A stretch of 53,715 nt of DNA from positions 1-53,715 of the forward strand of contig CACXKR010000003.1 of assembly GCA_902768335.1 (NCBI GenBank). Reading direction: 5' to 3'. The translations under genes and the position numbers were made by a program. Origin of the DNA: an uncultured Erysipelotrichaceae bacterium (GTDB lineage Bacteria; Bacillota_I; Bacilli_A; RFN20; CAG-826). The notes beneath the pieces were generated by a model that was not told the origin of the DNA, did no database searches, and saw only the letters and a program-made list of their open reading frames with translations. Positions 2,483 through 33,489 of the stretch are shown here, piece by piece (the first letter of the stretch is position 1; each line of letters opens with the position of its first letter).

Positions 2483-2483
2483 G

Positions 2484-15143: not shown

Positions 15144-15144
15144 T

Positions 15145-15907: not shown

Positions 15908-16825
15908 TTATTTAATGATGGTTCCCGCTTTTAATTCAACAGCGAGATTTGCTTTCTCTAAAGAAGAAATAATTGCAGTTTTGCCAGGCTTTTCGTTTAA
16001 GAACTTAACGCAAGCGTTGACTTTTGGATACATGCTACCTTTGGCAAAGTAGTCAGTTTTAAGATATTCTTCCATTTCTTTTTTAGAAACGCTTTCAAGT
16101 TTCTTTTCATCTGGCTTACGGTAGTTAATGTACACATTATCGACAGCGGTTAAGATAACAAGATAATCAGCATCAACTAATGCTGCAACTTTTGCAGAAG
16201 CATAGTCTTTGTCAATAACGGCAGCGACGCCTTCGAGTTTTTCGCCGTTCTTGATGACAGGAATACCGCCTCCGCCTGCGCAAACAACGATATCGCCTTG
16301 TTTAACTAAGGTTGCAATCGATTCTTTTTCGATGACATCGATTGGAAGCGGGGAAGGAACAACTCTTCTCCAACCACGACCAGCATCTTCTTTCATTGTG
16401 TAGCCTTTTTCAGCGGCAATCTTCTTAGCTTCTTCTTCACTATAGAAGGCACCGACTGGTTTGGATGGGCTTAAGAACATTGGATCGTTTTTATCAACGA
16501 GCACTTGTGAAACAAGTGTAACAACATTTCTTTTAAGTTTTTCTTCCTTTAAAGCATTATAAATTGCGTTTTGAATGTGGAAGCCAATATAACCTTGTGA
16601 CATTGCTCCGCATTCTGGGAATGGCATATCTGGAGCAGAAGTTGATTCCGTGAACGCTAAATTAATCATTCCAACTTGTGGTCCATTGCCATGAACAATA
16701 ATAACTTCGTGTCCTAATTTAATAAGGTGAACAATGCTTTTAGCAACACCGACGAGAAGGGCTTTCTGTTCTTCGGCGTTATTTCCAAGAGCATTACCAC
16801 CTAATGAAACTACATATCTTGACAT
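15908..16825 (-). CDS. arcC: Carbamate kinase
   Basis: VSLGGNAL, VHGNGPQVG, EDAGRGWRRVVPSP, GGGGIPV, AVIDKD, GSMYPKV. Confidence 0.95.
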   Translation of the reverse strand: MSRYVVSLGGNALGNNAEEQKALLVGVAKSIVHLIKLGHEVIIVHGNGPQVGMINLAFTESTSAPDMPFPECGAMSQGYIGFHIQNAIYNALKEEKLKRNVVTLVSQVLVDKNDPMFLSPSKPVGAFYSEEEAKKIAAEKGYTMKEDAGRGWRRVVPSPLPIDVIEKESIATLVKQGDIVVCAGGGGIPVIKNGEKLEGVAAVIDKDYASAKVAALVDADYLVILTAVDNVYINYRKPDEKKLESVSKKEMEEYLKTDYFAKGSMYPKVNACVKFLNEKPGKTAIISSLEKANLAVELKAGTIIK

Positions 16826-16965
16826 AAATATCTCCTTTATCGCTTCCTAATTATATAACTAGCATCCAAAATATAAAAATATTTTAAATTAAGAATATTA
16901 TATATTTTGAATATATATTCAAAATTTAAATACCTATTTCATACTCTTATACGCGCAACGTATAC

Positions 16966-16994
16966 TTGAAAGCGCTTAACCGCTCGTGTAGAAT
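16966..16994 (+). promoter_or_regulatory. sigA-type promoter for the Mo-enzyme cluster with an overlapping cre-like site
   Basis: TTGAAA-N17-TAGAAT; TGAAAGCGCTTAAC at 16967-16980 is a near-cre/LacI palindrome. Confidence 0.5.
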
Positions 16995-17006
16995 TATAAA
17001 TAATTC

Positions 17007-17582
17007 ATGATGACTGGCCTAATTCTCGCTGGCGGATGTTCTAGCCGCGCTAAAACAAATAAATTGCTCCTGAAGGTCAATGATAAGCCATTAATTTTAA
17101 ATACAATCGCATCTTTAAGTTCGCTTGTGGATGAACTTGTCGTGGTGACAGGTAAATTCGACAAAGAACTTAGACCATATCTTAGCAATTTCAAAGTTGT
17201 TTATAACAAGGATTATGAACTTGGAATGTTTTCGTCTGTGAAAGCCGGAATTAAAGATATCGATTCTGATCTATTAATTCTTCCTGGAGATATTTCAAAT
17301 GTTTCTTCAAAAACAATAAGCGCAATCATTACTAACAAAGGAATCATCACTATACCAACATATAAAGGTAAAAGCGGTCATCCTTTATTTTTGAATAAAG
17401 AAATGGTGAACAAACTTAAACAAGAAAATATTAATTCAAATTTAAGAGCGTTCATTAATTCAAATATTGACTATGTCAATTATGTCGAAGTAGATGATCC
17501 GTTCATCAATTTCGATGTTGATACAATCGAAGATTATAATCGTTTAGTAAAGCAGGGAAAGGAACTAACTTATGAAAGCTAA
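17007..17582 (+). CDS. mocA: Molybdenum cofactor cytidylyltransferase-like NTP transferase (MocA/YgfJ)
   Basis: LILAGGCSSR..NKLLL, GMFSSVKAG, LPGD, GHP, DVDTIEDY; heads a xanthine-oxidase-family cluster. Confidence 0.75.
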   Translation: MMTGLILAGGCSSRAKTNKLLLKVNDKPLILNTIASLSSLVDELVVVTGKFDKELRPYLSNFKVVYNKDYELGMFSSVKAGIKDIDSDLLILPGDISNVSSKTISAIITNKGIITIPTYKGKSGHPLFLNKEMVNKLKQENINSNLRAFINSNIDYVNYVEVDDPFINFDVDTIEDYNRLVKQGKELTYES

Positions 17583-18351
17583 TTCTTATGTAAGCGTTGG
17601 CTCATGGCAAGAAGCTTACAAACTCCTAAAGGCCTCACCCAAAAACAAAATCATTGGTGGCGGTCTTTGGTTAAAGAAAGGAAACGCTCAAGTTGATACT
17701 CTCATTGACTTAAGCAGACTAAACCTTAAGAAAATCGAGGATAAAGGTGCCTATATTGAAATTGGCTCAATGGTCAGTCAAAGAGAACTCGAACAATCTT
17801 CATTGATTAAAGGTCTATCCAATGGAGTTATCTCTGAGGCCGTTTCTCAAATCATGGGTCCAGCTTTTAGAAACGTGGCCACTGTTGGTGGTTCCGTGTA
17901 CGGAAAGTATGGATTCTCCGATTTAATTGCGGTTCTTTTGGGATTTGAAGTCGAACTCCAATTCTATCCAAGTAAGACTATGTCTTTAGAAGAATATCTT
18001 GCTCAACCAGGTTTCTATGATGGAATTCTTACTCATATTAGAATTCAAAAGAAAGATGCTCGAGCATTCTTTAAAAAAGTTTGTTTAACTTCCTTGGATT
18101 ATCCAATCCTAAATATCTGTATCACCAAAGGTGAGAAATATGTTGTTGTCGTTGGATCACGTCCACTTGTTGCGACACGATTAACTAAGACGATGGAATA
18201 TCTTAATAATGGCGGTAGCGATTTTAAAGAAGCCGCTAGAATCGCTGCTACAGAAATTAAAGTTGGTGATTCTATCGCCACCAAAGGTGAATATCGTAAA
18301 GAACTCGTAAAAGTTTACGTTGAACGTGGACTTGAGGAGGTAAATAAATAA
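17572..18351 (+). CDS. FAD-binding subunit of molybdenum hydroxylase I (YgfM-like)
   Basis: IIGGGLWLK, IEIGSMVSQRELE, FRNVATVGGSV, SDL, EYRKELVKV. Confidence 0.85.
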   Translation: MKANSYVSVGSWQEAYKLLKASPKNKIIGGGLWLKKGNAQVDTLIDLSRLNLKKIEDKGAYIEIGSMVSQRELEQSSLIKGLSNGVISEAVSQIMGPAFRNVATVGGSVYGKYGFSDLIAVLLGFEVELQFYPSKTMSLEEYLAQPGFYDGILTHIRIQKKDARAFFKKVCLTSLDYPILNICITKGEKYVVVVGSRPLVATRLTKTMEYLNNGGSDFKEAARIAATEIKVGDSIATKGEYRKELVKVYVERGLEEVNK

Positions 18352-18806
18352 TGCTAGTGAAATTTAACCTCAATGGACTTGAAAAAGAAGTCAATGTTAA
18401 AGCTAATGAATATCTTTTAGATACTCTTCGCTCCATAGGCGTTAAATCCGTTAAGAAAGGTTGCAATGCCTCTTCATGCGGCGTCTGCACCGTTTTATTG
18501 GATGATAAACCAGTTTTGTCTTGCTCTATCTTAACCGTTAGAGTTGCTGGTCATAAAGTTGAAACTGTGGAATCAATTCAAGAAGAAGCCGCTAAATTAA
18601 GTGAATGCTTCTCTAAAGAAGGCGCTGATCAATGCGGTTATTGTAATGCTGCTTTTGCTCTTATGGTCCACGCTTTAAGAAAAGAAAATCCAAATCCAAG
18701 TGCTGAAGAAATTAAGGAATACCTAAAAGGTAATCTTTGTCGATGCACTGGTTATCAATCTCAACAAAAAGCCATCCGTGCTTATTTAGGGGGTGAAGAA
18801 AAATGA
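18351..18806 (+). CDS. 2x[2Fe-2S] subunit of molybdenum hydroxylase I
   Basis: KKGCNASSCGVCTV...SC; QCGYC; NLCRCTGY. Confidence 0.9.
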   Translation: MLVKFNLNGLEKEVNVKANEYLLDTLRSIGVKSVKKGCNASSCGVCTVLLDDKPVLSCSILTVRVAGHKVETVESIQEEAAKLSECFSKEGADQCGYCNAAFALMVHALRKENPNPSAEEIKEYLKGNLCRCTGYQSQQKAIRAYLGGEEK

Positions 18807-21115
18807 GAAAATTTAAAGTAGTTAATAATATTACCCCAAGTGTTGATGGTAAAGGTATCATGATGGGTCGCGCCGTCTTTACTGACGATCTCGCTGCTCA
18901 AAATTCTTTAGTCTTAAAAGTTTTAAGATCACCACATGCCTTCGCACATATCAGAGATATCGACACAAGCGAAGCTGAAAAATATCCAGGTGTAGCCTGT
19001 ATCTTAACTTATAAAAATGTCCCTCATGTTCCATTTACACGTGCAGGACAAGGTTATCCAGAACCATCTCCACATGATAAGTTCGTCTTAGACGAATATG
19101 TCCGTTATGTCGGCGATGAAGTCGCTGTTGTTGCGGCCGAAGATGAAGAAACTGCTCTTGAAGCAATGAAGCTCATCAAAGTCGATTACGAAGTGCTAGA
19201 GCCTGTTTTAGATTTTGAAAAGGCTATGGATAATGAATCGGTCATCCATCCAGAGGACAAGATTCATGAAATGTTCCCAATTGGTTTTGAGCCAAAAAGA
19301 AACATTGCGACTGCTTATGAAATGGAAGTAGGCAATGTCGAAGAAGAATTGGCAAAATGCGATTATGTTGTCGATGAAACTTTCTATACACAAGCTCAAG
19401 CCCATGCGATGATGGAGCCACACGCCTCCAATGCTCGTTTAGATGAGCACAATAGATTAGTGGTTTATTCTACAACCCAAACTCCATTCCACATGCGTCG
19501 TATCATTTGTAAGACGTTAGGCCTTCCAGTTGATAAGGTTCGCGTTATTAAACCCCGTGTTGGTGGAGGTTTTGGTGGTAAACAAGCTTTCCATGGCGAA
19601 ATGTTTGTTTCATTAGTTACTTTAAGAACCAATCGTCCTTCTAAACTCGTTTATACTCGTGAAGAAGTTTTCGGTTCTTCCTATACACGTCACCCAATGC
19701 GCATTGCATTGCGTATCGGTGCAAATAAAGATGGTAAAATCCAGGCAATTGATTGTCGTGCTTTAAGCGATACTGGTGCATATGGCGAGCATGCTTTAAC
19801 AGTCTTTATGATTGTCGGCTCAAAAGTTTTGCCACTTTATAACAAAGTTAAAGCAGTCAGATTTGGTGGCAAAGTTGTTTACACTAATCATGTTCCTGCT
19901 GGAGCATATCGTGGTTATGGAGCAATCCAAGGTAACTATGCCTTAGAATCAACGATTGATATGCTTGCGAAAAAGATGGGTATGGATCCAATCGAACTTC
20001 GTGAAATCAACTCGATGAAAGAAAAAGAAACATCCCCAATCTTTGAAATCATGGGTGAAGGTACCGAAGGTACTGCTATGATTATGGAGTCATGCAAGCT
20101 CCCGTACTGCATTAAACGTGGACGTGAACTTATGAATTGGGATGAAAAATATCCTGTTAAACAAGTCGGTCCACATAAAGTTAGATCTGTTGGTTGCGCA
20201 ATCGCTATGCAAGGTAGCGGAATCCCGTTCTTAGATATGGGTTCTTGTACAATCAAACTCAACGATGGTGGCTCATACATGGTCACTGTTGGTGCAACTG
20301 ATATTGGACAAGGTAGCGATACCATTATTTCTCAAATTGTTGCTGAAGAACTTGGCACAACTATGGATAAGATTATTATTTATTCTTCTGATACTGACTT
20401 AACTCCATACGATTGTGGTGCTTATGCTTCATCTACAACCTATGTTAGTGGTAATGCTGCTTATAACGCTGCTGTCAAGATGAGAGAAAGACTCATTAAA
20501 GAAGCTGCCCAAGAATTAAAAGTTAAGCCCGATTTAGTTGAATTTGACGGCAAAACCTTCACTTCTGGTGACAAGAGTGTCACTTTAGAAGATCTTTCAA
20601 CAGGTCGACTTTACAATAACGATACACATCAAATCGCTGTTACAGAATCCTTTCACGGACATGTTTCGCCACCTCCATTTATGGCGGCATTTGGCGAATT
20701 TGAATTCGATACAGAAACCTATGAATATAAGATGGTGAAGTATGTCACCATCACTGATTGTGGTACAACCATCAACCCAATGCTTGCTAGAGGGCAAGTT
20801 GAAGGTGGTGTCATTCAAGGTTATGGAATGGCTTCTAGTGAAGAAGTTTTATACACTCCAAATGGTAAATTGGTGTCAGATAATTTCGATATGTACCACA
20901 TTCCAACTGTAAAAGAAGTTGGTGAACTTGTTACTGAATTTGCTGATTCGTATGAGCCAACTGGCCCATTTGGTGCTAAATCAGTTGGTGAAATTGGTAT
21001 TGATACACCTCCAGCCGTTTTATGTAACGCTGTTTATAATGCCTTTGGAGTTAGAATCCATAGCTTACCAATCACTCCTCAAAAGATTTTTGAGGCAATG
21101 AAAGAGAAAAAATAA
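18803..21115 (+). CDS. Molybdopterin-binding subunit of molybdenum hydroxylase I (XdhD-like)
   Basis: QAHAMMEPH, GGGFGGKQ, GAYRGYGA, GATDIGQGSDT, YASSTTY, GQVEGG, GPFGAKSVGE. Confidence 0.9.
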   Translation: MRKFKVVNNITPSVDGKGIMMGRAVFTDDLAAQNSLVLKVLRSPHAFAHIRDIDTSEAEKYPGVACILTYKNVPHVPFTRAGQGYPEPSPHDKFVLDEYVRYVGDEVAVVAAEDEETALEAMKLIKVDYEVLEPVLDFEKAMDNESVIHPEDKIHEMFPIGFEPKRNIATAYEMEVGNVEEELAKCDYVVDETFYTQAQAHAMMEPHASNARLDEHNRLVVYSTTQTPFHMRRIICKTLGLPVDKVRVIKPRVGGGFGGKQAFHGEMFVSLVTLRTNRPSKLVYTREEVFGSSYTRHPMRIALRIGANKDGKIQAIDCRALSDTGAYGEHALTVFMIVGSKVLPLYNKVKAVRFGGKVVYTNHVPAGAYRGYGAIQGNYALESTIDMLAKKMGMDPIELREINSMKEKETSPIFEIMGEGTEGTAMIMESCKLPYCIKRGRELMNWDEKYPVKQVGPHKVRSVGCAIAMQGSGIPFLDMGSCTIKLNDGGSYMVTVGATDIGQGSDTIISQIVAEELGTTMDKIIIYSSDTDLTPYDCGAYASSTTYVSGNAAYNAAVKMRERLIKEAAQELKVKPDLVEFDGKTFTSGDKSVTLEDLSTGRLYNNDTHQIAVTESFHGHVSPPPFMAAFGEFEFDTETYEYKMVKYVTITDCGTTINPMLARGQVEGGVIQGYGMASSEEVLYTPNGKLVSDNFDMYHIPTVKEVGELVTEFADSYEPTGPFGAKSVGEIGIDTPPAVLCNAVYNAFGVRIHSLPITPQKIFEAMKEKK

Positions 21116-21116
21116 A

Positions 21117-22421
21117 ATGAACGATCTTCTTGTTAAAAATGGTTTAGTTTACATTAATGGTAAATTTGAGAAAGTTAATCTCGCTATTTTAAACGAGAAG
21201 ATTTCTTATATCGGAAAAGAAGAAGTCGATGCAAAAGAAGTGTTTGATGCATCAAATCTTAAGGTTCTGCCTGGCTTAATTGATCCGCATGTTCACTTTG
21301 AGCTCAACTGCGGAAAAGTTACTTCTGTTGATGATTTTTATTATGGTAGCAAATGCGCAATTTATGGTGGAGTAACCACAATTGTTGATTTCCTAGATCC
21401 AACTAGAAATGCCGAAGAACTCGAAAAATCGTTCTATGAAAGACTTAATTTAGCAAAGAAATCACTTGTCGATTATCATTTCCACGCTTGTATTAGAGAA
21501 CCTAACGGGTCTTTGGAAGAATACGTAAAGAAAACCGTTGAGCTTGGAATGAGAACAATTAAGCTATTTACAACATATTCCGATACGCATCGTCGAACTT
21601 ACGATAAAGACATCATTGAATTACTCAAATTAAGCAAAAAATACAACGTGCTGATTTGCGCGCATATCGAGAATGACGATTTAATCGATTTAAGAGATAA
21701 ATATACATATAAAGATTTATCTTTATCTAGACCAAGCATAGCCGAAACTAGTGAAGCCTTAAAACTCGCTAAATATGTTAAAGAGACCGGCGGAAACTTC
21801 TATATGGTTCATTGTTCAAGTGGACAAACTCTTAAAGCTTTAAAAGAACAATTCAGAGATATTTTGAATAAAAACTTCTATGTTGAATCTTGTCCTCAAT
21901 ACTTTATCTTTAATAATTCTGTTTTAGATGAAGAAAACGGCAGATTGTTTACTTTCGCTCCTCCACTAAGAAGCGAGAGGGAAAGACAACTTTTAGTAGC
22001 GAATTACAAAGATATTATTTCAATTGGAACCGATCATTGTGCATTTATGAAGGCTGATAAAGACTGCCCAACTTTAAAAGGTTTCCCACTTGGAGTTGGT
22101 GGTGTCGAACACGCCTTCCCACTTATGTATAGGCGCTTTGGAGATGAGATTATCGATAAGATGAGCGTTAATACTGCCAAGGTACAAGATTTCGTATCTA
22201 AAGGATTGATTAAGGAAGGCCTTGATGCTGATTTAGGATTTTTTAAAGAAGATGATTCTACAATCGAAAACGAAAACCATGGAAAATGCGATTACTCAAT
22301 CTACGACGGCTTAATTTCTTCTGGACAATTTATTCATGTTTTAAGAAGAGGAAGCTTTGTGTTAAAGAATAGAAAGATTATTGAATCGCAGGGAAAATTG
22401 ATTAATTGTGGGGAAAAATAA
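21117..22421 (+). CDS. Dihydropyrimidinase/hydantoinase-family cyclic amidohydrolase (HyuA-like)
   Basis: PGLIDPHVH, GGVTTIVDF, IKLFTTY (carbamylated Lys), CAHIEN, MVHCS, PPLR, GTDHCAF. Confidence 0.85.
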   Translation: MNDLLVKNGLVYINGKFEKVNLAILNEKISYIGKEEVDAKEVFDASNLKVLPGLIDPHVHFELNCGKVTSVDDFYYGSKCAIYGGVTTIVDFLDPTRNAEELEKSFYERLNLAKKSLVDYHFHACIREPNGSLEEYVKKTVELGMRTIKLFTTYSDTHRRTYDKDIIELLKLSKKYNVLICAHIENDDLIDLRDKYTYKDLSLSRPSIAETSEALKLAKYVKETGGNFYMVHCSSGQTLKALKEQFRDILNKNFYVESCPQYFIFNNSVLDEENGRLFTFAPPLRSERERQLLVANYKDIISIGTDHCAFMKADKDCPTLKGFPLGVGGVEHAFPLMYRRFGDEIIDKMSVNTAKVQDFVSKGLIKEGLDADLGFFKEDDSTIENENHGKCDYSIYDGLISSGQFIHVLRRGSFVLKNRKIIESQGKLINCGEK

Positions 22422-22422
22422 A

Positions 22423-23721
22423 ATGAAAGCAATTATTAATGCAAGAATTTATGATTACACAAATTATATCGAAAACGGATATGTTATTTTTGATAAGAAA
22501 ATCATTGAAGTAGGTTCTATGAAAAATTATAAAAAACCTGCAGAAGCCAAAGAAATTGACTTTACAGGCGATTTATTAATTCCTGGTTTTGTTTGTAATC
22601 ATGCTCATATTTATTCGATTTTTGCTAGGGGTTTAGCTCTTCCTTTCAACCCTAAAAACTTTCAAGACATCCTTGATCAAATGTGGTGGAAGCTTGATGC
22701 AAAACTTACTAATGAAATGACCTATTATAGCGGTATTGCTGCTTCATACGAATTCTTACTCAATGGCGTCACAACTGTTATAGATCATCATGCGAGTGGT
22801 GAAATTAAAGGTTCTCTTAAAAAATTAAGTAAGGCCGTCAGTGGTGTCGCAGGCATAAGAGGCCTATATTGTTTTGAAACATCTGATCGCTATAATGTCG
22901 ATGAATGCATTAAAGAAAATATTACTTTTGCAAAGAAAAACCAAAACGATAAAGTTCATGGCTTATTTGGAATGCACGCTTCAATGTCGTTAAGCGATAA
23001 AACACTTAAGAAGATTTCTAAGAAAAACGAATTCCCAATTCATGTTCATGTTGCTGAATCAGATATGGACGAGGAAGACTCGTTAAACAAATATAAAATG
23101 AACATTATTTCTAGATTTGATAAATATGGCTTAATTAAACCTAATTCTTTGATTGTTCATGGTGTTTTCCTTAATGATGACGAACTTGAGATTATCAAAA
23201 ATAGAAAAGCCTATATGGTCGTTAATACAACTTCGAATATGAATAACGCTGTCGGATTACCTGATGTTAAAACTTATCTTGAACACGATATTCCGGTTAT
23301 GGTTGGCAACGATGGTTTGAATTCTAATATGGCTAGCGAATATATGAATGTTTTATATACTTCGCATCTAAAAAATAAACAACCAACAGAGCTTAACTTA
23401 GGGGATGTCTTAAATATGCTTAAGACTTCCTATAAATATATATCAAATACCTTTGGTATTAAGTTAGGAGAAATCGCCAAAGATTACGAAGCCGATTTCT
23501 TAAGAGTGAAATACACTCCGTTTACCAAGATGGATGAAAGTAATGCTTTTGGTCATCTCTTCTATGGAACCTTCCCTAACTTTAAACCTTCTCATGTATT
23601 TATAGGTGGCAAGCTCCAAGTTAAAGACTACAAAGTTGTTAATAAAAAACTGAATAATGAGTTTACTAAATGCAATACTTATTCCAAACAACTTTGGGAT
23701 TCATTAAAGGAGGCAAAATAA
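22423..23721 (+). CDS. ssnA: SsnA-like metal-dependent amidohydrolase
   Basis: PGFVCNHAHIYSIFARG, ILDQMWWKLD, GVTTVIDHHAS, IHVHVAES, VHG, NNAVG, GNDG. Confidence 0.75.
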   Translation: MKAIINARIYDYTNYIENGYVIFDKKIIEVGSMKNYKKPAEAKEIDFTGDLLIPGFVCNHAHIYSIFARGLALPFNPKNFQDILDQMWWKLDAKLTNEMTYYSGIAASYEFLLNGVTTVIDHHASGEIKGSLKKLSKAVSGVAGIRGLYCFETSDRYNVDECIKENITFAKKNQNDKVHGLFGMHASMSLSDKTLKKISKKNEFPIHVHVAESDMDEEDSLNKYKMNIISRFDKYGLIKPNSLIVHGVFLNDDELEIIKNRKAYMVVNTTSNMNNAVGLPDVKTYLEHDIPVMVGNDGLNSNMASEYMNVLYTSHLKNKQPTELNLGDVLNMLKTSYKYISNTFGIKLGEIAKDYEADFLRVKYTPFTKMDESNAFGHLFYGTFPNFKPSHVFIGGKLQVKDYKVVNKKLNNEFTKCNTYSKQLWDSLKEAK

Positions 23722-24818: not shown

Positions 24819-26917
24819 TGAAATCGAAATATCCAACATCAGTTAAAAAAGTGGATTTTGCAGCGAAATTTGCTGGAGAAGCACTTTTTAGTGATGACAT
24901 TCCTTTCGATAACGCCCTGTTTGCTAAGACGTTAAGATCTACAATTTCGAGAGGAAAAATCAAGGCGGTTCATCTTCCTAAACTTCCAGAAGGTTATTAT
25001 TATTTTGACCGCAGCGATGTAAAAGAAAATGTTGTCAATATCATCTTTTCCGATTGGCCAGTCTTTGCCGATGGTAGAGTTAACTATCTTGGTGAAGGAA
25101 TCGGCATTTTTGTCGGTGAAAACATGGAAGTTTTGAACAAACTCGTTGAAGAAACAAAGGTTGATTATATTGAAGAAACTCCTGTTTTTGATATGAGCGA
25201 ATCATACATCCATAAAGCTTTTAAAAAGGGCGACTATGAAGCCGCTAAGAAGAAAGCAAAAAGAGTTATTAAACGTACTTACGAGACTTCGTTCCAGGAA
25301 CAAGCATATCTCGAAAACCAAGCAATTATTGCATATTTTGATGAAAACGATAAACTTACGCTCACAGGATCGATGCAGTGTCCATTCTATATCAAACGGG
25401 CTGTAATGAGGTCTTTAGGGCTTGGCGATGATCAAGTTAGAGTAATTCAACCAGCAGTTGGTGGAGCCTTTGGTGGCAAAGAACATTATCCATCGCTAAC
25501 TGGCTCTCAAGTTGCAACCGCTGCACTTAAGCTTCATCGTCCAGTAAAAATGATTTATGAAAGACCGGAAGACATTGTTTTCTCTACAAAACGTCATCCT
25601 TCTCATAGCGAATATGAAGCTTTGATTGGCGAAAACAATGAGATTCTAGGTATTAAAGCCCACATCAAATTGGATGGTGGTGCCTATAAAGGTTGCAGCG
25701 GTGTCGTTTTATCACGTGCTCTAATTGCATCGTGCAACGCATATGTTTTTGAAAATATTGATATTGTTGGCGATGCTTGCATGACAAATCATGTTCCTTG
25801 TGCAGCATTCAGAGGTTTCGGCTCTCCTCAAACTATTTTTGCGATGGAAATGTTTATTCATCATATCGCAAAAGAAATTGGGGTTGATCCACTCGAACTT
25901 AGATTAAAATACCTTGCAAAACATGGTGATGTTACTACAAATAGTGGACATTTCCACGATCCAATAATCCTACCAGAACTTATTAACAAAGCAATGGAAA
26001 TGAGCGATTACAAACGCAAGGTAAAGGAATATTCAAAACCCGGATGTCTCAAAGGAATTGGTATGTCTTTATTCCTTCATGGATGCGGATTTACTGGTTC
26101 GGGAGAATCAGACATTATTAAAGGCAAAGTTAAATTAGTTAAAGACGAAAATGACCATGTCTATTGCTATGCTTCTAGCGTTGATATGGGTCAAGGTTGT
26201 AGAACAACTTTGAAAAGGATTGTCGCAAAAAATCTCGGTCTACCAGATGAACAAGTAACGATGGATGGACCAGATACAGATGCAACTCCAGATACAGGCC
26301 CGACCGCAGCTTCTAGAACAATTATTATTGTTGGATTCCTTATGGAAAAAGCTGCGAAGAATCTTAAAAAGATTTGGAAAAAAGGTGTTAGACAAGAGCA
26401 TATCGAACCTTATGTCGGTCCAAGTTATATCCATTGGGACGAAGCGACTATGCAAGGTGATGCCTATCCATCATATTCTTGGGGCGTCAATGTTGTAGAA
26501 GTTGAAGTTAACCCAATTACATATCAAGTTGAAGTTAAGCACACTTGGTCAACTTATGATGTTGGTCGAGTTGTCGATGAAAGAATCGCTGTTGGTCAAG
26601 CTGATGGCGGTCTACTTCAAGCACTTGGATATGGTTACTTAGAAAATTTGCGCTGCGAAAATGGTAAATTTAGACAAAAAGGTTTGACAGATTATATTGT
26701 TCCAACCGCAGTTGATGCACCTCCTATGGAAACTGCCTTTATTGACAATCCATTCATTTATGGTGCTGATGGAGCTAAAGGTATGGGTGAATTAACCTTT
26801 GTTGGTGGCGCTCCAGCTCTTGCTTTAGCAATTGAGAATGCAATCAAGAAAGAAATCCATTCTATTCCTGCTACTCCTGAATATCTTATGGAGGTAATTA
26901 ATAATGGCAAATATTAA
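24818..26917 (+). CDS. Molybdopterin-binding subunit of molybdenum hydroxylase II (XdhA-like)
   Basis: GTG start overlapping the upstream TAG; EQAYLE, GGAFGGKE, AFRGFGSPQ, DMGQG, TAASRT, GQADGG, GAKGMGE. Confidence 0.9.
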   Translation: MKSKYPTSVKKVDFAAKFAGEALFSDDIPFDNALFAKTLRSTISRGKIKAVHLPKLPEGYYYFDRSDVKENVVNIIFSDWPVFADGRVNYLGEGIGIFVGENMEVLNKLVEETKVDYIEETPVFDMSESYIHKAFKKGDYEAAKKKAKRVIKRTYETSFQEQAYLENQAIIAYFDENDKLTLTGSMQCPFYIKRAVMRSLGLGDDQVRVIQPAVGGAFGGKEHYPSLTGSQVATAALKLHRPVKMIYERPEDIVFSTKRHPSHSEYEALIGENNEILGIKAHIKLDGGAYKGCSGVVLSRALIASCNAYVFENIDIVGDACMTNHVPCAAFRGFGSPQTIFAMEMFIHHIAKEIGVDPLELRLKYLAKHGDVTTNSGHFHDPIILPELINKAMEMSDYKRKVKEYSKPGCLKGIGMSLFLHGCGFTGSGESDIIKGKVKLVKDENDHVYCYASSVDMGQGCRTTLKRIVAKNLGLPDEQVTMDGPDTDATPDTGPTAASRTIIIVGFLMEKAAKNLKKIWKKGVRQEHIEPYVGPSYIHWDEATMQGDAYPSYSWGVNVVEVEVNPITYQVEVKHTWSTYDVGRVVDERIAVGQADGGLLQALGYGYLENLRCENGKFRQKGLTDYIVPTAVDAPPMETAFIDNPFIYGADGAKGMGELTFVGGAPALALAIENAIKKEIHSIPATPEYLMEVINNGKY

Positions 26918-27377
26918 ATTTACCTTAAACAATAAAGTAGTCGAAGTTGATCTTGATCCTTCGATGAGACTTATTGACGCTTTGCGCTTACACTTTAAAC
27001 TTACCGCAACCAAAGAAGGATGCGGCGAAGGAAGTTGTGGTGCGTGCGTAGTTCTCATGGATGGCAAAGGTATTAATTCATGTTTGATGCCGCTTGCTAA
27101 TGTTAATGGTCATTCAATCATCACTCTCGAAGAATTCAAGAAAACAAAACAATTCAAAGTGTTAGAAGAATGTTTTGCTGATGAAGGTGGTTCACAATGT
27201 GGTTTCTGCACCCCAGGAATGATTTTTGCGGCTCAGTCTTTGCTTGCTAGCAATGCTCATCCAAGTGAAGAAGAAGTTCGCGAAGCTCTTTCTGGAAATC
27301 TCTGCAGATGTACAGGTTATCAATCAATCGTCAATGCTATTTTAAGAGCAGCGAAGGAAGGAGAAGGCTTATGGTAA
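26904..27377 (+). CDS. 2x[2Fe-2S] subunit of molybdenum hydroxylase II
   Basis: TKEGCGEGSCGACVV, QCGFCTPGM, GNLCRCTGY. Confidence 0.92.
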   Translation: MANIKFTLNNKVVEVDLDPSMRLIDALRLHFKLTATKEGCGEGSCGACVVLMDGKGINSCLMPLANVNGHSIITLEEFKKTKQFKVLEECFADEGGSQCGFCTPGMIFAAQSLLASNAHPSEEEVREALSGNLCRCTGYQSIVNAILRAAKEGEGLW

Positions 27378-28219
27378 AATACATCCCGGCTTCAAAAGAA
27401 GACGCTTTAAATTTCCTTGCTTCTCATGACGCTTATATTGTTGCAGGTGGAACCGATATGATGGTTCTAAAAAGAAATGCAGCAGGATTGCTTCCAAAAT
27501 TTGATAAGGATGTTTTATATATTTCCAACTTAAACGAACTTAATAAAATTTATGAAGATAAGGAATATATTCACATAGGCGCAACTGCAACATTAGATGA
27601 AATTTATAATCATCCTTTGACTCCAAAATTATTAAAAGAAGCTGTTGGGGAAGTTGCCTCAATAAATATTCGTCATTTTGCAACTCTTCCTGGCAATATC
27701 GCTAATGCCTCTCCAGCAGGAGATACGATTGTCATCGATTATCTTTTAGATGCTATTGTTAAACTCGAGTCCAAGAATGGCGTTAGATTAGTTAAAGCTG
27801 AAAACTTTGTCTTAGGCGTTAGAAAAGTCGACCGTAGAAGCGATGAACTAATTACTGAAATTATGTTCCCTCGTTTCTCCTATGACGGTGATATGTGGTA
27901 CAAAGTCGGTTCTAGAAAAGCTGATTCAATTTCAAAAGTGAGTGTTGCAGGTCTTTACTCTATAACAGATGGTAAGATTTCGAAATTTGCTCTCGCATTT
28001 GGCTCTACCGCTGTTACAGTTCGTAGAAGTCACGAATTAGAAAAAGAAATTGAAGGTTTAACTCAAAAAGAGCTTCTCGATAGATGCGAAGAATTTGTTG
28101 AAAAATATTCTAAGATTATTTCGCCTATCGATGATCAACGTTCCAACAAAGAATATCGTTTAATGGTTGCGAAAAATATTACTCGTAAATTCATTAAACA
28201 AGTTGGGGAGGGAAAATAA
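27371..28219 (+). CDS. FAD-binding subunit of molybdenum hydroxylase II
   Basis: VAGGTD, IHIGATAT, IRHFATLPGNIANASPAGD, PIDDQRSNKEYR. Confidence 0.9.
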   Translation: MVKYIPASKEDALNFLASHDAYIVAGGTDMMVLKRNAAGLLPKFDKDVLYISNLNELNKIYEDKEYIHIGATATLDEIYNHPLTPKLLKEAVGEVASINIRHFATLPGNIANASPAGDTIVIDYLLDAIVKLESKNGVRLVKAENFVLGVRKVDRRSDELITEIMFPRFSYDGDMWYKVGSRKADSISKVSVAGLYSITDGKISKFALAFGSTAVTVRRSHELEKEIEGLTQKELLDRCEEFVEKYSKIISPIDDQRSNKEYRLMVAKNITRKFIKQVGEGK

Positions 28220-29466
28220 TGAGTTCATACATAAAAGGTTATAAATGCACGATTTGCGGGGAATTCTTTAAACCAGATGAGGTCAATTTAACCTGCCCAC
28301 ACTGTGGCGAAAAAGGTATTCTCGATGTTGTTTATGACTACGATGCATTAAAATCTATTCTCACAAAAGAGTACTTTAAGAATAATAAAAACTATTCAAT
28401 GTGGAGATACGCTCCAATCATGGGAATTAAAGAAGACCATATTGATGAGATGCTCCGTGTTGGATGGACTCCTCTTTACCACGCTAGAAATCTAGAAAAA
28501 GAATTAGGCGTGAAAAGACTATATGTAAAAGATGATGGATTAAATCCAAGCGGATCAAGCAAAGACCGTGCTAGTGGTGTAGCGGTTTTAAAAGCTATTG
28601 AAGCTGGCGCGAAAGTTATTGCTTGTTCTTCAACTGGAAATGCCGCATCAAGCTGTGCTTGTCAGGCTGCTCATATGGGACTTAAAGCAGTTATCTTTGT
28701 TCCAAAAAGAGCCCCGATTGGCAAAGCCACTCAAATTTGTTTATACGGTGCTACTTTAGTTAAAGTTGATGGTGACTACAAAGCCGCTTTCTCTTTATCA
28801 AAGCAAGCTATCGATAAATACGGTTGGTATAACCGTAATGCCGCCATTAATCCTTTCATGGTTGAAGGCAAGAAAACTGTTGCAATGGAAATAGCCGAGC
28901 AACTTGACTTCGAACCAACCGATTGGGTAGCAATATCTGTAGGCGACGGATGTTCTATTGGTGGTGTTTATAAGGGATTTGCAGAGTTTTACAAGTTAGG
29001 TTTAATTAAACGAATCCCAAAAATCTTAGGTGTTCAATCAACTGGATGCGCACCATTTGTTATTTCAAGTCAAACTGGTGAGCCTCTAAAAGAAGCTGAT
29101 GAGAACACTCTTGCTGATTCTATCGCTGTTGGTATTCCTCGTAACCCTGTGAAAGCTATTAATGCAGTGAAGCTTTCAAAAGGTGCTTGGATCGCTGTAC
29201 CAGATGAGGACATTATTAAAGCAATGTCTTTATTAGGAAGAACCGAAGGCATCTTTGGTGAACCTGCTGGTGTAGCAGCAATAGCGGGAATTAGAAAAGC
29301 TGTTGAACAAGGTATCATCTCGCCTGATGAAACCGTTACAACAATCGTTACTGGAAACGGTTTAAAAGATCCAGTCAATGGTCAAAAGGCAGTATCCATG
29401 CCTGAACCAATGGAACCAAATCTTGAAACATTGGATAAATTTTTGAAAGAAAAAGGAGCAATTTAG
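28219..29466 (+). CDS. Threonine-synthase-like fold-type II PLP enzyme with N-terminal Zn ribbon
   Basis: CTICG...CPHCG; LNPSGSSKDR (PLP Lys); SSTGNAASS; EGKKT; VGDG; context argues against a housekeeping thrC. Confidence 0.8.
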   Translation: MSSYIKGYKCTICGEFFKPDEVNLTCPHCGEKGILDVVYDYDALKSILTKEYFKNNKNYSMWRYAPIMGIKEDHIDEMLRVGWTPLYHARNLEKELGVKRLYVKDDGLNPSGSSKDRASGVAVLKAIEAGAKVIACSSTGNAASSCACQAAHMGLKAVIFVPKRAPIGKATQICLYGATLVKVDGDYKAAFSLSKQAIDKYGWYNRNAAINPFMVEGKKTVAMEIAEQLDFEPTDWVAISVGDGCSIGGVYKGFAEFYKLGLIKRIPKILGVQSTGCAPFVISSQTGEPLKEADENTLADSIAVGIPRNPVKAINAVKLSKGAWIAVPDEDIIKAMSLLGRTEGIFGEPAGVAAIAGIRKAVEQGIISPDETVTTIVTGNGLKDPVNGQKAVSMPEPMEPNLETLDKFLKEKGAI

Positions 29467-29467
29467 T

Positions 29468-30838
29468 ATGTCAAAAATTCCATTCGGACCAACGTATGAT
29501 GAAATGCTTAATCCATCGCATGTTGATCCAGAAACTAGAGCAAAAGCTCTCAAGGCACTCAAGGAAAACGAACTTGATCCTATTAACCTCTTCAACATCA
29601 CTTGGAAAAATGAAAAGAATGAGGTTAACAAAATCGTCTTACCAAAAGCTTTAACTGGCGTCGATGCAAACATCGTCGTTATGCTCGGTAAGTATTTCCC
29701 ATCTGGCTCACATAAAGTTGGACCAGCTTATGCAACACTTATTGAAGGATGTGTTGATGGTGAAATTATCCCAGGAAAACACACAATTCTTGGTCCTTCA
29801 ACTGGTAACTTTGGTATCGGCACAAGTTATATTACTAACTTAATGAAATATGATGCCATCGTCATCATGCCAGACAATATGTCTAAAGAGAGATATGAAA
29901 GAATCTCTAAATATGGCGCAAAACTCGATTTAACTCCAGGTTCTGAGTCTGATGTTATTCTCACCTTAGAGAGAACATATGAACTTAAGAAGAATCCTCT
30001 TAATAGAACCTTAGCTCAATTCGAGCTTCTTCCAAACTACAGATTCCATCGTCATGTCACAGGTAATTCTGCTATCGAAGCTGTCAAAGGAATCGGTAAT
30101 GGTCGTATTGCCTGTTTCTGTTCTGCCCCTGGTAGCGCAGGTACATTAGCGGCTGGCGATCAAATCAAAGTTGCATTCCCAGAATGTAAAGTTGTTGCTT
30201 TAGAACCACACGAATGTTCAACTCTTACCAATGGTGGTCTTGGACAACATCGTATCGAAGGTATCGGCGATAAGATGATTACTCTTATCCACAACGTTTT
30301 AACAACCGACTTCATCACTCAAATTATCGATGAAGATTGCGTCCGTGGTTTAGCAGTCATTCATGAAGGTAGCGATATTCTTGTTAAACACGGTGTTGAT
30401 CCAAAAGTTGCTAAAGCAATGACCGATTTATTTGGTGTCTCTGGCATCTGCAATATTTTAGGTGCTATCAAGATGGCTAAATATCTTAAACTCGGACCAG
30501 ATGATAACGTTGTTACAATCGCGACTGACTCATTTGATAGATATCCATCAGTCATCAAGAATCTCCATGAAAGAGAACTTGAAGTTACTGATAACGTTTT
30601 AGAAAGATGGTTTGAAGATGTCTTTGCTGAAGCTGATACCCGTTACGTTTTAGATACACGTGGCAAAGAAGCTAAAGAAAAACTCTTCACTCAAAAGGAA
30701 AAAGATTGGCTTAAATTTGGCTACAAACAAGAATATCTTGATTCAATGAGAAAACCAGAATTCTGGGAACACGAATATGCTTTAGTCAAAGAATATGATA
30801 AAAAGATTAAAGAAATGCGTGGAAAGGAAATCAAATAA
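29468..30838 (+). CDS. Cysteine-synthase-like fold-type II PLP enzyme, unknown substrate
   Basis: FPSGSHKVG (PLP Lys), GPSTGNFG, SAPGSAGT, HRIEGIGD; long N- and C-terminal extensions. Confidence 0.75.
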   Translation: MSKIPFGPTYDEMLNPSHVDPETRAKALKALKENELDPINLFNITWKNEKNEVNKIVLPKALTGVDANIVVMLGKYFPSGSHKVGPAYATLIEGCVDGEIIPGKHTILGPSTGNFGIGTSYITNLMKYDAIVIMPDNMSKERYERISKYGAKLDLTPGSESDVILTLERTYELKKNPLNRTLAQFELLPNYRFHRHVTGNSAIEAVKGIGNGRIACFCSAPGSAGTLAAGDQIKVAFPECKVVALEPHECSTLTNGGLGQHRIEGIGDKMITLIHNVLTTDFITQIIDEDCVRGLAVIHEGSDILVKHGVDPKVAKAMTDLFGVSGICNILGAIKMAKYLKLGPDDNVVTIATDSFDRYPSVIKNLHERELEVTDNVLERWFEDVFAEADTRYVLDTRGKEAKEKLFTQKEKDWLKFGYKQEYLDSMRKPEFWEHEYALVKEYDKKIKEMRGKEIK

Positions 30839-32059
30839 ATGAAGGTTTCATTTGAAGAAATTCTCAAAAAAGCAGAGTCGTATCAAAAAGATATGACCAA
30901 ATTCCTTCGTGACATGGTTAAGATTCCTTCCGAATCATGTTGCGAAAAGGAAGTCGTCCTTCGCATCAAACAAGAGATGGAAAAAGTTGGTTTCGACAAA
31001 GTCGAGATCGATCCAATGGGCAACGTATTAGGTTATATTGGCCATGGTAAACACCTCATTGCTATGGACGCTCACATCGATACTGTCGGTATCGGTGAAA
31101 TCAAAAACTGGAAGTTTGATCCATATGAAGGTTTCGAAGACGATACCTACATCGGTGGTAGAGGAACTTCCGACCAAGAAGGTGGCATGGCTTCAATGGT
31201 TTATGCTGGTAAGATTATCAAAGATCTCGGTCTTGAAGATGACTACACTTTATTAGTTACTGGTACAGTTCAAGAAGAAGATTGCGATGGCTTATGCTGG
31301 AAATACATCATTGAACAAGACAAAATCAAACCAGAATTTGTCGTTTCGACCGAACCAACTTCTTGCCAAATCTATCGCGGCCATCGTGGACGTATGGAAA
31401 TTAAAGTTAATGTCCGCGGTATTTCTTGCCATGGTAGCGCACCAGAACGTGGTGACAACGCCATTTACAAAATGGCTGATATCATCAAAGATATTGAAAA
31501 ACTTAATGAAACCGGCCTTGCCTATGATCCATTCTTAGGAAAAGGTACAGTTACCATCTCTCAAATCTTCCATAAATCACCAAGCCGCTGTGCGGTCGCT
31601 GATGGTTGCTGGATCTCTCTTGATAGACGTTTAACTGTCGGTGAAAATGATAAGACCTCAATTGCTGAAATTGAAAACTTACCATCAGTCAAGAAAGCTA
31701 AAGCTGAAGTTACGATGTACGATTATGAACGTCCAGCGTATACTGGCTTAGTTTATAAACAAGAATGCTACTTCCCAACTTGGGTTATTCCTGAAGATTC
31801 CATTTATGTTCAATCATTGAAACAAGGATATGAAGGATTATTCAAAAAAGCACCAGTCATCGATAAGTGGACATTCTCCACAAATGGTGTTTCCATTATG
31901 GGTAGATTCGGCATTCCATGTCTCGGATTTGGTCCTGGCGATGAAAAAGAAGCTCACGCACCAAATGAAAAGACAAGAAAACGTGATTTAGTCATCTGTG
32001 CTGCATTATATGCAACTATCCCAGGACTATATCTCGAAAATTTAGCGAAGCAAAAATAA
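30839..32059 (+). CDS. ygeY: YgeY-family M20 metallo-amidohydrolase
   Basis: [64 protein letters not shown]. Confidence 0.85.
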
Positions 32060-32068
32060 GGAGAAGTT

Positions 32069-33079
32069 ATGAAAAAAATTGAACCAAAATTCGCTGGTCG
32101 TCATCTTATTACCTTAGAAGATTTTACTAAGGAAGAAATCGACTACATCTTAAAAGTCTCTCACGAAATGAAAGACGCCTTCTATGCCAATGAAGAAACT
32201 CAATGGTTAGTAGGCAAAACTGGTTTCTTGATGTTCTTTGAACAATCAACCAGAACCAGAAACTCTTTTGAGTCAGGTATGGCTCAACTCGGTGGACATG
32301 CAACATTCTTAGATACATCTATGATGCAAATCGCTCATGGTGAATCTGCAAAAGATACGGCTGTCATCCTCTCAAGCTTTGGTCATATGATCGCTTGTAG
32401 ATATTGTAACTGGGGCCTTGGCAACAAATATATCCGTGAAATGGCCAAATGGTCCACAGTCCCAATAATTAACTTACAATGTGACCTTTATCACCCAATG
32501 CAAGCCTTAGCAGACTTAATGACAATCGAAGATGAATTTGGTAAGACCAAAAACCTCAAAGTTTCCGTCATTTGGGCTATGGCTACAACTCATAAGAAAC
32601 CAATTTCAGTTCCAGTTTCACAAGTCTTATTATTCCCACGTTATGGAATCGATGTGACTCTTGCTTATCCAGAAGGTTATGATTTACCAGACTGGGTTAT
32701 TGAAAAAGCCAGAAAGAACGCTGCTGAAAATGGTGGATCATTAACAATTACCCACGATATGGATGCCGCATACAAAGATGCAGACGTCGTCTTCCCAAAG
32801 AACTGGGGAAGCTGGGTTACCAACCAATCAACAACAGTCGTTGATGATGCTTTATTAGCACTCAAATCCTGGAAGTGTACACCAGATAAGATGGCACTTG
32901 CTAAACCAACTTGTCGTTATATGCACGCTCTTCCAGCTGACAGAGTCAACGAAGTTGTCGATGAAGTTATTGATGGACCACAATCAGTCGTCTACCAAGA
33001 AGCCGAAAACAGAATTCACACTGCAAAAGCTGTTATGGCCTTATTTGTCCACGACAAAGTTCCATCAGATAGACGTTAA
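32069..33079 (+). CDS. Carbamoyltransferase (OTC/AOTC/YgeW superfamily), substrate uncertain
   Basis: STRTR carbamoyl-phosphate motif, HPMQ, ENR; MHALP instead of HCLP; WAMATTHKKPISVP loop. Confidence 0.85.
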   Translation: MKKIEPKFAGRHLITLEDFTKEEIDYILKVSHEMKDAFYANEETQWLVGKTGFLMFFEQSTRTRNSFESGMAQLGGHATFLDTSMMQIAHGESAKDTAVILSSFGHMIACRYCNWGLGNKYIREMAKWSTVPIINLQCDLYHPMQALADLMTIEDEFGKTKNLKVSVIWAMATTHKKPISVPVSQVLLFPRYGIDVTLAYPEGYDLPDWVIEKARKNAAENGGSLTITHDMDAAYKDADVVFPKNWGSWVTNQSTTVVDDALLALKSWKCTPDKMALAKPTCRYMHALPADRVNEVVDEVIDGPQSVVYQEAENRIHTAKAVMALFVHDKVPSDRR

Positions 33080-33100
33080 TTGCTCCTATTAAATAGATGG

Positions 33101-33132
33101 GCGGACCTCGTTAGAGGTTCGCTTTTTCTTTT
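33101..33132 (+). terminator. Terminator of the Mo-enzyme operon
   Basis: GCGGACCTC-gtta-GAGGTTCGC plus TTTTTCTTT. Confidence 0.75.
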
Positions 33133-33143
33133 GTTTTCTAAGT

Positions 33144-33179
33144 ATATCTATTGTACATACATTGGATATATGTTATAGT
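33144..33179 (+). promoter_or_regulatory. TA promoter with overlapping operator
   Basis: TTGTAC-N17-TATAGT with extended TG; imperfect inverted repeat ATATCTATTGTA-ca-TACATTGGATAT (10/12) over the -35. Confidence 0.55.
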
Positions 33180-33201
33180 TTTATCGAAGGAGGTAAGAAT
33201 T

Positions 33202-33486
33202 ATGAATGCAACCGCAGCAGTTTATGTCAAAGTTGATGCTTCTGACAAAAAGATAGCTGAAACAATAATGCATAGTTTAGGCGTGACTCCATCAAGCTTA
33301 ATCCAAATGCTTTACAAGCAAGTTATCTTAAAACGTGCAATTCCATTTGATATTTCTTTACCTAGCAAGCCAATTGCAACTGGTGATATGACCGAAGAAG
33401 AAATTTCTGAATTGGTTCAAGAAGGAATCGATTCGGCGAAAGATGGAACCTACACATCGGAAGAAATAAGAAAGATGCTAGGATAA
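33202..33486 (+). CDS. RelB/DinJ-family antitoxin
   Basis: VYVKVDASDK..AETIMHSLGVTPS..IQMLYKQVILKRAIPFDI; SD GGAGG. Confidence 0.85.
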   Translation: MNATAAVYVKVDASDKKIAETIMHSLGVTPSSLIQMLYKQVILKRAIPFDISLPSKPIATGDMTEEEISELVQEGIDSAKDGTYTSEEIRKMLG

Positions 33487-33489
33487 ACT

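Follow-up and report, generated by a model that had tools for sequence, protein, structure and literature searches.

The window analysed here is a stretch of 53,715 nucleotides from an uncultured Erysipelotrichaceae bacterium (assembly GCA_902768335.1, contig CACXKR010000003.1). It is one whole contig of a 0.99-Mb, 27-contig metagenome-assembled genome (MAG) that is 89% complete and has 36% G+C. Between positions 15908 and 33079 lies a cluster of 15 genes, about 17 kb long, which is probably a self-contained operon that degrades purine bases anaerobically, first through urate and 2,8-dioxopurine to an amino acid of three carbons (C3) and then to pyruvate, while carbamoyl phosphate serves to make ATP. 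It represents a known pathway in a conserved variant form and does not amount to a new kind of system. Beyond the known pathway are a ThrC-like pyridoxal phosphate (PLP) enzyme in YgeX's place, a CysK-like PLP enzyme, a distinct short carbamoyltransferase, independence of selenium, and hosts that lack molybdenum cofactor (Moco) synthesis.

The reductive urate/2,8-dioxopurine (Yge/Ygf) pathway was solved in 2025 by Li et al. (PMC12507026) and Liu et al. (bioRxiv 10.1101/2025.04.24.650524). XdhD, also called DOPDH, reduces urate to 2,8-dioxopurine (PMC12507026; bioRxiv 10.1101/2025.04.24.650524), which is dearomatised by YgfK or, in C. difficile, by the stand-alone PydA homologue UacX, together with SsnA (PMC12507026). 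HyuA opens the hydantoin to give 2,3-diureidopropionate, the two ureido groups are removed by YgeW (with YqeA, making ATP) and by YgeY, and YgeX converts diaminopropionate to pyruvate (PMC12507026; bioRxiv 10.1101/2025.04.24.650524). A separate xanthine dehydrogenase (XDH) supplies urate from hypoxanthine and xanthine (bioRxiv 10.1101/2025.04.24.650524).

The window's genes would fit this scheme as follows, each step being assigned from homology and synteny. An enzyme of canonical XDH type (subunits Mo2, FeS2 and FAD2) would oxidise hypoxanthine and xanthine to urate, which a second enzyme of XdhD/YgfM type (Mo1, FeS1 and FAD1) would reduce to 2,8-dioxopurine. A UacX-type reductase, with flavin mononucleotide (FMN) and [4Fe-4S] clusters, would then act with an SsnA-like hydrolase to dearomatise the purine and open the pyrimidine ring, and a hydantoinase-like enzyme would convert the hydantoin to 2,3-diureidopropionate. 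One ureido group would be phosphorolysed by the short carbamoyltransferase, with carbamate kinase turning carbamoyl phosphate into ATP, and the other would be hydrolysed by YgeY to leave 2,3-diaminopropionate. The ThrC-like enzyme would do YgeX's job, a beta-elimination of ammonia that yields pyruvate. The CysK-like enzyme would catalyse a second PLP-dependent reaction that draws on this C3 amino acid pool, perhaps the handling of one enantiomer or a beta-replacement to serine that feeds an adjoining L-serine dehydratase. Moco is presumably obtained from outside and finished by a MocA-like enzyme.

Fourteen plus-strand genes are tightly packed at 17007-33079, preceded by a divergent carbamate kinase gene (arcC/yqeA type, 15908-16825, minus strand). 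Genes within the operon overlap or are separated by at most 10 bp, all 15 reading frames are intact, and a strong intrinsic terminator closes the operon (33099-33124, plus strand; an 11-bp stem with six G-C pairs, then a T tract). Pfam and NCBIfam profiles returned the same families as the original prediction at each of its 15 positions, and the operon with divergent arcC that it described was borne out. Curated NCBIfam cut-offs were exceeded only by YgeY, by carbamate kinase and, misleadingly, by "threonine synthase". The divergent control region, the 181-bp arcC/mocA interval (16826-17006), has promoter-like sites, recognised by consensus match only, on the plus strand (TTGAAA-17-TAGAAT, 16966-16994) and the minus strand (TTTATA-16-TATAAT, 16877-16850); no Rfam family, riboswitch or other known RNA matched in this interval.

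The arrangement is not due to chance, as the same order recurs in about 60 loci of different species. With the window's proteins mapped onto them, these loci read hyuA-ssnA-uacX-Mo2-FeS2-FAD2-(adenine deaminase)-thrC-like-cysK-like-ygeY-transferase, preceded in loci that extend far enough upstream by mocA-FAD1-FeS1-Mo1-(XdhC-like). A gene set not kept together would have spoken against the original prediction, but the set proved to be strongly conserved. Near-identical proteins and loci come from MAGs of uncultured "Bacilli" or "Erysipelotrichaceae" of the rumen or gut, whose genomes measure about 1.1 Mb. Relatives of the CysK-like protein number at least 539 in species-representative genomes, and the best 80 of them (74-96% identity) belong to MAGs of Bacilli from rumen and gut, to Izemoplasmatales, to Acholeplasmataceae and other Mycoplasmatota, and to Neomoorella, Vallitaleaceae and others.

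Variation among these loci was informative about the pathway. Izemoplasma-type clusters have two further genes, one for a 571-aa adenine deaminase placed between FAD2 and the ThrC-like gene, and one for a 260-aa XdhC-like chaperone that separates Mo1 from hyuA (locus L070, 7044-8759; L090, 12646-14370; L093, 4008-4775); both genes have been lost in the window's genus. Genes for adenine and guanine deaminases are found inside sister clusters. The two PLP genes of larger Bacillota occur in clusters with a true YgeW (65-72% identical to that of E. coli), YgfK, YqeB and MocA. Together with the exchange of YgfK for the UacX-type reductase described below, these clusters argue for the same pathway and not for a different substrate.

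YgeY (30839-32059, plus strand), an M20 hydrolase assigned to ureido-group hydrolysis, scored 692.6 bits with TIGR03526 against a cut-off of 321.5 and is 73% identical to E. coli YgeY. The carbamate kinase scored 381.5 bits with TIGR00746 (cut-off 358.25) and is 50% identical to E. coli YqeA; a divergent arcC is also present in loci L096 and L097 of relatives.

Both molybdenum hydroxylases are complete. The first comprises the Mo subunit Mo1 (770 aa, 18803-21115), a [2Fe-2S] subunit (18351-18806; PF01799, PF00111) and the flavin subunit FAD1 (17572-18351), all on the plus strand. FAD1, at 259 aa, has PF00941 and no CO_deh_flav_C domain, and its best E. coli match is YgfM, of equal length. Mo1 has the catalytic Glu and a GGGFGGKQ motif and is 35% identical to E. 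coli XdhD compared with 32% to XdhA. It shares with XdhD an insertion bearing Glu606 (E419 in Mo1) that is not seen in the alignment in XdhA or in Mo2. Glu606 of XdhD has been proposed to orient urate (Li et al., PMC12507026). An XdhD/DOPDH-type hydroxylase, as expected of a 2,8-dioxopurine cluster, is thus recognised in Mo1 at the level of sequence, and we propose that Mo1 interconverts urate and 2,8-dioxopurine. A plus-strand MocA-like gene for a molybdenum cofactor cytidylyltransferase (17007-17582; PF12804) heads the Mo1 module, as it does in the four related genomes checked.

The second enzyme, also encoded on the plus strand, consists of Mo2 (723 aa, 24746-26917), a [2Fe-2S] subunit (26904-27377; PF01799) that is 42% identical to E. 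coli XdhC, and the XdhB-like FAD2 (27308-28219; PF00941 and PF03450, CO_deh_flav_C), which is 29% identical to E. coli XdhB. Mo2 is 24% identical to E. coli XdhA and has the motifs GGAFGGKE, KRHP, AAFRGFG and GMGE with the canonical Glu/Arg/Phe/Glu set. We take the GGKE, RH, AAFRGFG and GE residues to be those of classical XDH, an assignment made from the bovine and R. capsulatus enzymes, and the sequence of Mo2 fits an XDH. Mo2 is kept in all cluster loci. In a phylum sample of 399 genomes, 32 had YgeY and 26 had this cluster type; orthologues of both Mo1 (64-100% identity) and Mo2 were present in 26 of the 26. The two hydroxylases had been put forward as a distinguishing feature, and both sets are indeed there, but they are not new, since XDH plus DOPDH/XdhD is the usual complement of the 2,8-dioxopurine pathway (bioRxiv 10.1101/2025.04.24.650524).

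Two putative amidohydrolases, both scoring below their family cut-offs, are encoded next on the plus strand. The hydantoinase/dihydropyrimidinase-like protein (21117-22421; TIGR02033), whose gene has a conserved position, is the candidate for the HyuA role, and the best NCBIfam match of the following SsnA-like protein (22408-23721) is SsnA. The UacX-type reductase (23670-24818, plus strand; true start probably the ATG at 23718) has an FMN barrel of the dihydroorotate dehydrogenase (DHODH)/PydA kind with two [4Fe-4S] clusters (PF01180, Fer4) and adjoins the SsnA-like gene, the neighbour beside which YgfK or UacX is expected. YgfK occupies the UacX slot in otherwise identical clusters (loci L058 and L062), as seen in Izemoplasma sp. 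B36 and strain WC30. YgfK was absent from the whole MAG, as were YgeX/DpaL, YgeW, YqeB and YqeC. A stand-alone PreA-like protein without YgfK, which the original prediction had singled out, was therefore observed, but it is not new, UacX being known from C. difficile (PMC12507026). The likeness to C. difficile UacX was judged from its published description (PMC12507026).

The zinc-ribbon ThrC-like PLP enzyme (28219-29466, plus strand; PF00291) shares with threonine synthase the fold-type II PLP fold, the PLP lysine, an STGN loop and a score over the TIGR00260 thrC cut-off (216 against 167 bits). Because it clears this threonine synthase profile, automatic annotation will mislabel it as threonine synthase. 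It differs from that enzyme in an added N-terminal CxxC...CxxC ribbon, in four residues and in its setting in a purine catabolic operon. The four changes are T88A, S155A, R160M/L and N188D (T. thermophilus numbering); they were found in 78 of 78 relatives, while the corresponding residues are invariant in the three solved threonine synthases used for comparison (PDB 1UIM, 2D1F and 2ZSJ). An acidic residue at the N188 position would suit a substrate that, like diaminopropionate, bears its amine at the distal end, and we propose that the invariant Asp243 of the ThrC-like enzyme binds the beta-amine. A separate ThrC-like open reading frame (478 aa, contig C20) is possibly this MAG's real threonine synthase.

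Among the 32 YgeY-bearing genomes, 29 had the ThrC-like gene without YgeX, three had YgeX without the ThrC-like gene and none had both. In those 29 genomes (26 of them with this cluster type) the ThrC-like gene adjoins the cluster, and no YgeX/DpaL scored above the cut-off there or in the whole MAG. YgeX and YqeB were also absent from 25 related genomes with this cluster that are 96-99% complete. We propose that the ThrC-like enzyme is a functional replacement of YgeX, the diaminopropionate ammonia-lyase.

The CysK-like enzyme (456 aa, 29468-30838, plus strand) has a different distribution. PF00291 matches residues 67-354 alone; CysK and CysM are single-domain proteins of about 300 aa, and the CysK-like enzyme is longer by about 60 residues at its N terminus and about 100 at its C terminus. 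The PLP lysine and the glycine-rich loops are retained, but the CysK model gave 130 bits against a cut-off of 351, well short of a cysteine synthase. A structure model of this protein had a pLDDT of 74, and a Foldseek search against the PDB matched O-acetylserine sulfhydrylases only and was uninformative for the extensions. The family was present in 31 of the 32 YgeY-bearing genomes, including two of the three with YgeX. Those two encode a 497-aa paralogue, 40-44% identical, directly beside ygeX, and that paralogue subfamily alone has at least 8000 database members. Loci in which the family adjoins YgeX, with no ThrC-like gene, are L086, L087 and L100, the last an unrelated metagenomic cluster, and the CysK-like enzyme is not favoured as the YgeX replacement for this reason. 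Since only the ThrC-like enzyme excludes YgeX, we regard it as the candidate replacement and the CysK-like enzyme as an additional member. The suggestion that two other PLP enzymes stand in for YgeX is supported for the first and not for the second; the two are not a simple pair.

The alternative that keeps most force concerns this exit from the pathway. The ThrC-like and CysK-like enzymes could form a two-step exit in which diaminopropionate or albizziin becomes L-serine, or some other beta-substituted alanine, instead of going straight to pyruvate, the serine then being used in biosynthesis or deaminated by the adjoining iron-sulfur L-serine dehydratase. That dehydratase gene (33908-35116, plus strand; PF03313, PF03315) is possibly linked to the cluster and may link the CysK-like step to serine. 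In close relatives it follows the transferase gene by about 90 bp, with a relB/parE cassette lying between the two here, and it is directly downstream in 11 of them. In agreement with such an exit, most clusters have the ThrC-like and CysK-like genes next to or close to each other, beta-replacement is typical of CysK-fold enzymes, and serA and serC flank the cluster in this genus. L-Serine dehydratase also occurs in the unrelated L100. The CysK-like family, however, stands beside a bona fide YgeX without a ThrC-like gene in the three loci named above, which excludes an obligate pair, and the dehydratase linkage is restricted to a single family and might simply reflect synteny with cysS. Nor are we aware of a chemical precedent for an enzyme of this sort using water as its nucleophile. 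On balance we consider a two-step exit unlikely, and prefer direct elimination to pyruvate by the ThrC-like enzyme. The serine dehydratase gene of L100 (13342-14929) lies inside the YgeX-type urate cluster of that locus.

The last gene of the operon encodes a short carbamoyltransferase (32069-33079, plus strand) for which we infer a YgeW-like role. It scored 194 and 183 bits with the YgeW profiles (cut-offs 453 and 500) and 261 bits with that of ornithine carbamoyltransferase (OTC; cut-off 280.85), and it also fell below the PTC cut-off. It is 36% identical to YgeW and 31% to ArgI, and has the motifs STRTR, HPMQ, HALP and PKNWGSW. PKNWGSW resembles the PKSWAPY of YgeW, although the insertion that follows PKxW in YgeW is absent. 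HALP replaces the HCLP of OTC in 59 of 60 relatives. An OTC of the arginine deiminase pathway was considered and rejected: the protein has no SMG ornithine loop and no HCLP, its gene is always the last of the purine operon, and it belongs to a separate clade of its own (99/99 support). Clusters bear either the short type or YgeW in the same place beside ygeY, which argues for ureido phosphorolysis coupled to carbamate kinase. The description of this protein as a shorter, non-YgeW transferase holds in that it lies outside the YgeW clade, but in pairwise comparisons it is closer to YgeW than to OTC.

The hosts of this cluster differ from known urate degraders in two traits. All strains with urate clusters studied by Liu et al. 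have SelD and YqeB/YqeC, and XDH and DOPDH need SelD (bioRxiv 10.1101/2025.04.24.650524). Among the 26 genomes with this cluster type, SelD and YqeB were each found in none, whereas SelD was present in five of six sampled YgeY genomes of other cluster types; tblastn searches of this MAG found neither YqeB nor YqeC. Judged by gene content, this version is independent of the selenium trait, unlike the characterised systems. The second trait is Moco synthesis. The survey across genomes covered MoaC and MoeA, which were absent from 23 and 24, respectively, of the 26 cluster-type genomes, single-contig genomes included. Four complete genomes (Izemoplasma sp. B36, strain WC30, strain zrk2 and a metagenome chromosome) likewise lacked MoaC, which was present in 13 of 13 larger Bacillota. 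In this MAG, tblastn found none of moaA-E, moeA, modA or modB.

The carriers thus appear to be molybdoenzyme "orphans". Orphan molybdoproteins of the xanthine oxidase (XO) family have been noted in general terms, and Mollicutes listed as not using molybdenum, by Peng et al. 2018 (PMC6147048). The present hosts resemble the organisms with orphan molybdoproteins in having XO-family molybdoenzymes without Moco biosynthesis or a known molybdenum transporter (PMC6147048). They differ in that complete genomes are available, that the operon is conserved and includes MocA and usually an XdhC-like chaperone, and that it is expressed in cultured relatives. Homologous clusters are transcriptionally induced in cultured Izemoplasma relatives (PMC8397711, PMC10470597): in Hujiaoplasma nucleasis zrk29, DNA and RNA induced a cluster of XDH-related and iron-sulfur protein genes along with those for adenine deaminase and dihydropyrimidinase (PMC10470597). 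Loci with XDH and deaminase genes in Izemoplasmatales were also noted by Wasmund et al. (PMC8289736). None of these three papers ties the locus to the 2,8-dioxopurine pathway or remarks on the missing YgeX, selenium or Moco genes.

Intact and conserved reading frames, a mocA kept throughout the related genomes compared, and expression of the cluster in cultured relatives point to a working molybdenum enzyme, and we therefore favour acquisition of Moco from outside. A bolder reading, which we advance tentatively and regard as somewhat doubtful, is that Mollicutes-like anaerobes that neither make Moco nor import molybdate carry out a selenium-independent purine degradation in which Mo-molybdopterin scavenged from the surroundings is cytidylylated by the operon's MocA and inserted into both XDH-family enzymes, and the exit runs through two new PLP enzymes, a ThrC-derived diaminopropionate lyase and a widespread CysK-like enzyme for a step absent from the published pathway. 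If true, the scavenging of Mo-molybdopterin would be the first documented molybdenum-cofactor salvage in bacteria.

Several observations weigh against a purine-base operon of the proposed kind. Three of its enzymes fell below the cut-offs of the families to which they were assigned: the HyuA-like protein (220 bits against 393 with TIGR02033; 28.5% identical to E. coli HyuA), the SsnA-like protein (362 against 444; 30% identical to E. coli SsnA) and the MocA-like protein (123 against 186 with TIGR03310; 27% identical to E. coli MocA). The carbamoyltransferase lies outside the YgeW clade, and the tree did not settle how its own clade relates to YgeW and OTC. Eight of 18 genomes of larger Bacillota with ThrC-like/CysK-like clusters also carry YgeX somewhere, so the exclusivity seen with YgeY-bearing genomes is not universal. 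Searches of this MAG with E. coli queries found no purine permease homologues, and the MAG is 89% complete. The missing Moco genes could mean that the molybdenum enzymes are inactive in some hosts. Finally, the assignment of the four residues changed in the ThrC-like enzyme to the phosphate pocket for O-phosphohomoserine, as in the T. thermophilus threonine synthase, is a tentative one.

Some of these points bear on a broader doubt. The original prediction had left two possibilities, a parallel Yge/Ygf route built partly by non-orthologous replacement and a pathway for a different heterocycle or modified nucleobase; in the second case the likeness to Yge/Ygf would exist at the family level only. 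The SsnA-like, HyuA-like and Mo2 proteins are indeed only 24-30% identical to the E. coli enzymes and lie under the equivalog cut-offs, the transferase belongs to a separate clade, and a PreT/PreA pair is encoded on the same contig. Nevertheless, the 73% identity of YgeY, the exchange of YgfK for UacX and of YgeW for the short transferase inside otherwise identical clusters, the adenine and guanine deaminases embedded in sister clusters, the XdhD-specific Glu loop of Mo1 beside xanthine-specific residues in Mo2, and the induction of a homologous cluster by DNA and RNA in a cultured relative all speak against a different substrate, which we consider very unlikely. The first possibility is the one that YgeY, the YgfK swaps and the deaminases of sister clusters support. 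That the cluster is a decaying or inactive relic in hosts unable to make Moco or take up molybdate is highly improbable, since the Moco genes missing from most carriers and from this MAG, and the loss of the XdhC-like chaperone and adenine deaminase in this genus, are set against 15 intact frames, orthologues that are 64-98% identical across genera with gene order kept, a mocA retained throughout and strong expression of a homologous cluster in cultured isolates.

In close relatives sdaA follows the transferase gene by about 90 bp and serA abuts arcC. Here, type II toxin-antitoxin cassettes lie on either side of the cluster (33151-33795 and 13623-14194; RelB/ParE-like and Phd/ParE-like), and these cassettes, together with DUF6512 and thiF genes, are therefore insertions specific to this genome. 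The ThiF gene (15130-15864) was considered as a MoeB for Moco synthesis and rejected, being absent from that place in a same-genus genome, in which serA abuts arcC, and lacking MoaD and MoaE partners; it probably encodes a TcdA-type enzyme. Elsewhere on the contig, a PreT/PreA-like pair at 1250-3731 consists of a GltD-like subunit for NAD(P)H and flavin adenine dinucleotide (FAD) together with a DHODH-like FMN/[4Fe-4S] subunit. This pair might act as a pyrimidine reductase or supply electrons to the UacX-type reductase, which has no FAD domain. At 47905-48001 on the minus strand, a COG3943 RNA (Rfam RF02941) scored 82 bits against a gathering score of 71.8; the match overlaps a stretch that had earlier been called an unnamed multi-stem RNA from sequence alone.

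These results bear on how urate degraders are counted. Surveys of the gut and rumen recognise carriers by the presence of YgeX, YgfK, YgeW and the selenium trait and would miss this cluster type, although hundreds of species-level relatives are known for the CysK-like marker alone; present annotation assigns the ThrC-like and CysK-like genes to amino-acid biosynthesis. A step may be missing from the published eight-enzyme pathway, as the CysK-like family is also found with YgeX. A selenium-free version would bear on the proposal that selenium supply limits the intestinal removal of urate, and on the engineering of uricolytic probiotics. Intact, expressed molybdenum hydroxylase operons in hosts without Moco synthesis or molybdate transport offer a tractable case for the "orphan molybdoprotein" problem, since cultured Izemoplasma relatives exist.

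Compared with the E. coli cluster (ygeW-ygeX-ygeY-hyuA-yqeA, mocA, ygfK-ssnA-ygfM-xdhD and xdhABC), the window's locus has in common YgeY (73% identity) and carbamate kinase (50%), an XdhD/YgfM-like molybdenum enzyme with the Glu606 loop, an XdhABC-like second one, MocA, putative SsnA-like and HyuA-like amidohydrolases, and a carbamoyltransferase beside ygeY. The predicted logic is also that of E. coli: a reduction comes first, two rings are then opened and two ureido groups cleaved, and a PLP enzyme provides the exit. Unlike E. coli, it has the ThrC-like protein in YgeX's stead, an extra CysK-like enzyme, a UacX-type reductase instead of YgfK and a short carbamoyltransferase outside the YgeW clade. 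Its counterpart of XdhD is divided between a Mo subunit and a 2Fe-2S subunit, YqeB, YqeC and SelD are missing, the host lacks Moco biosynthesis and ModAB, and all genes form one operon. The C. difficile cluster (XdhD, UacX, SsnA, HyuA, UacY, YgeY and YgeX; PMC12507026) is similar in its stand-alone PydA-like FMN/[4Fe-4S] reductase replacing YgfK, and differs in retaining YgeX and the selenium trait (PMC12507026). C. difficile relies on the hydrolase UacY and lacks a carbamate kinase (PMC12507026), whereas the window's locus keeps both carbamoyltransferase and kinase and would therefore conserve ATP where C. difficile does not.

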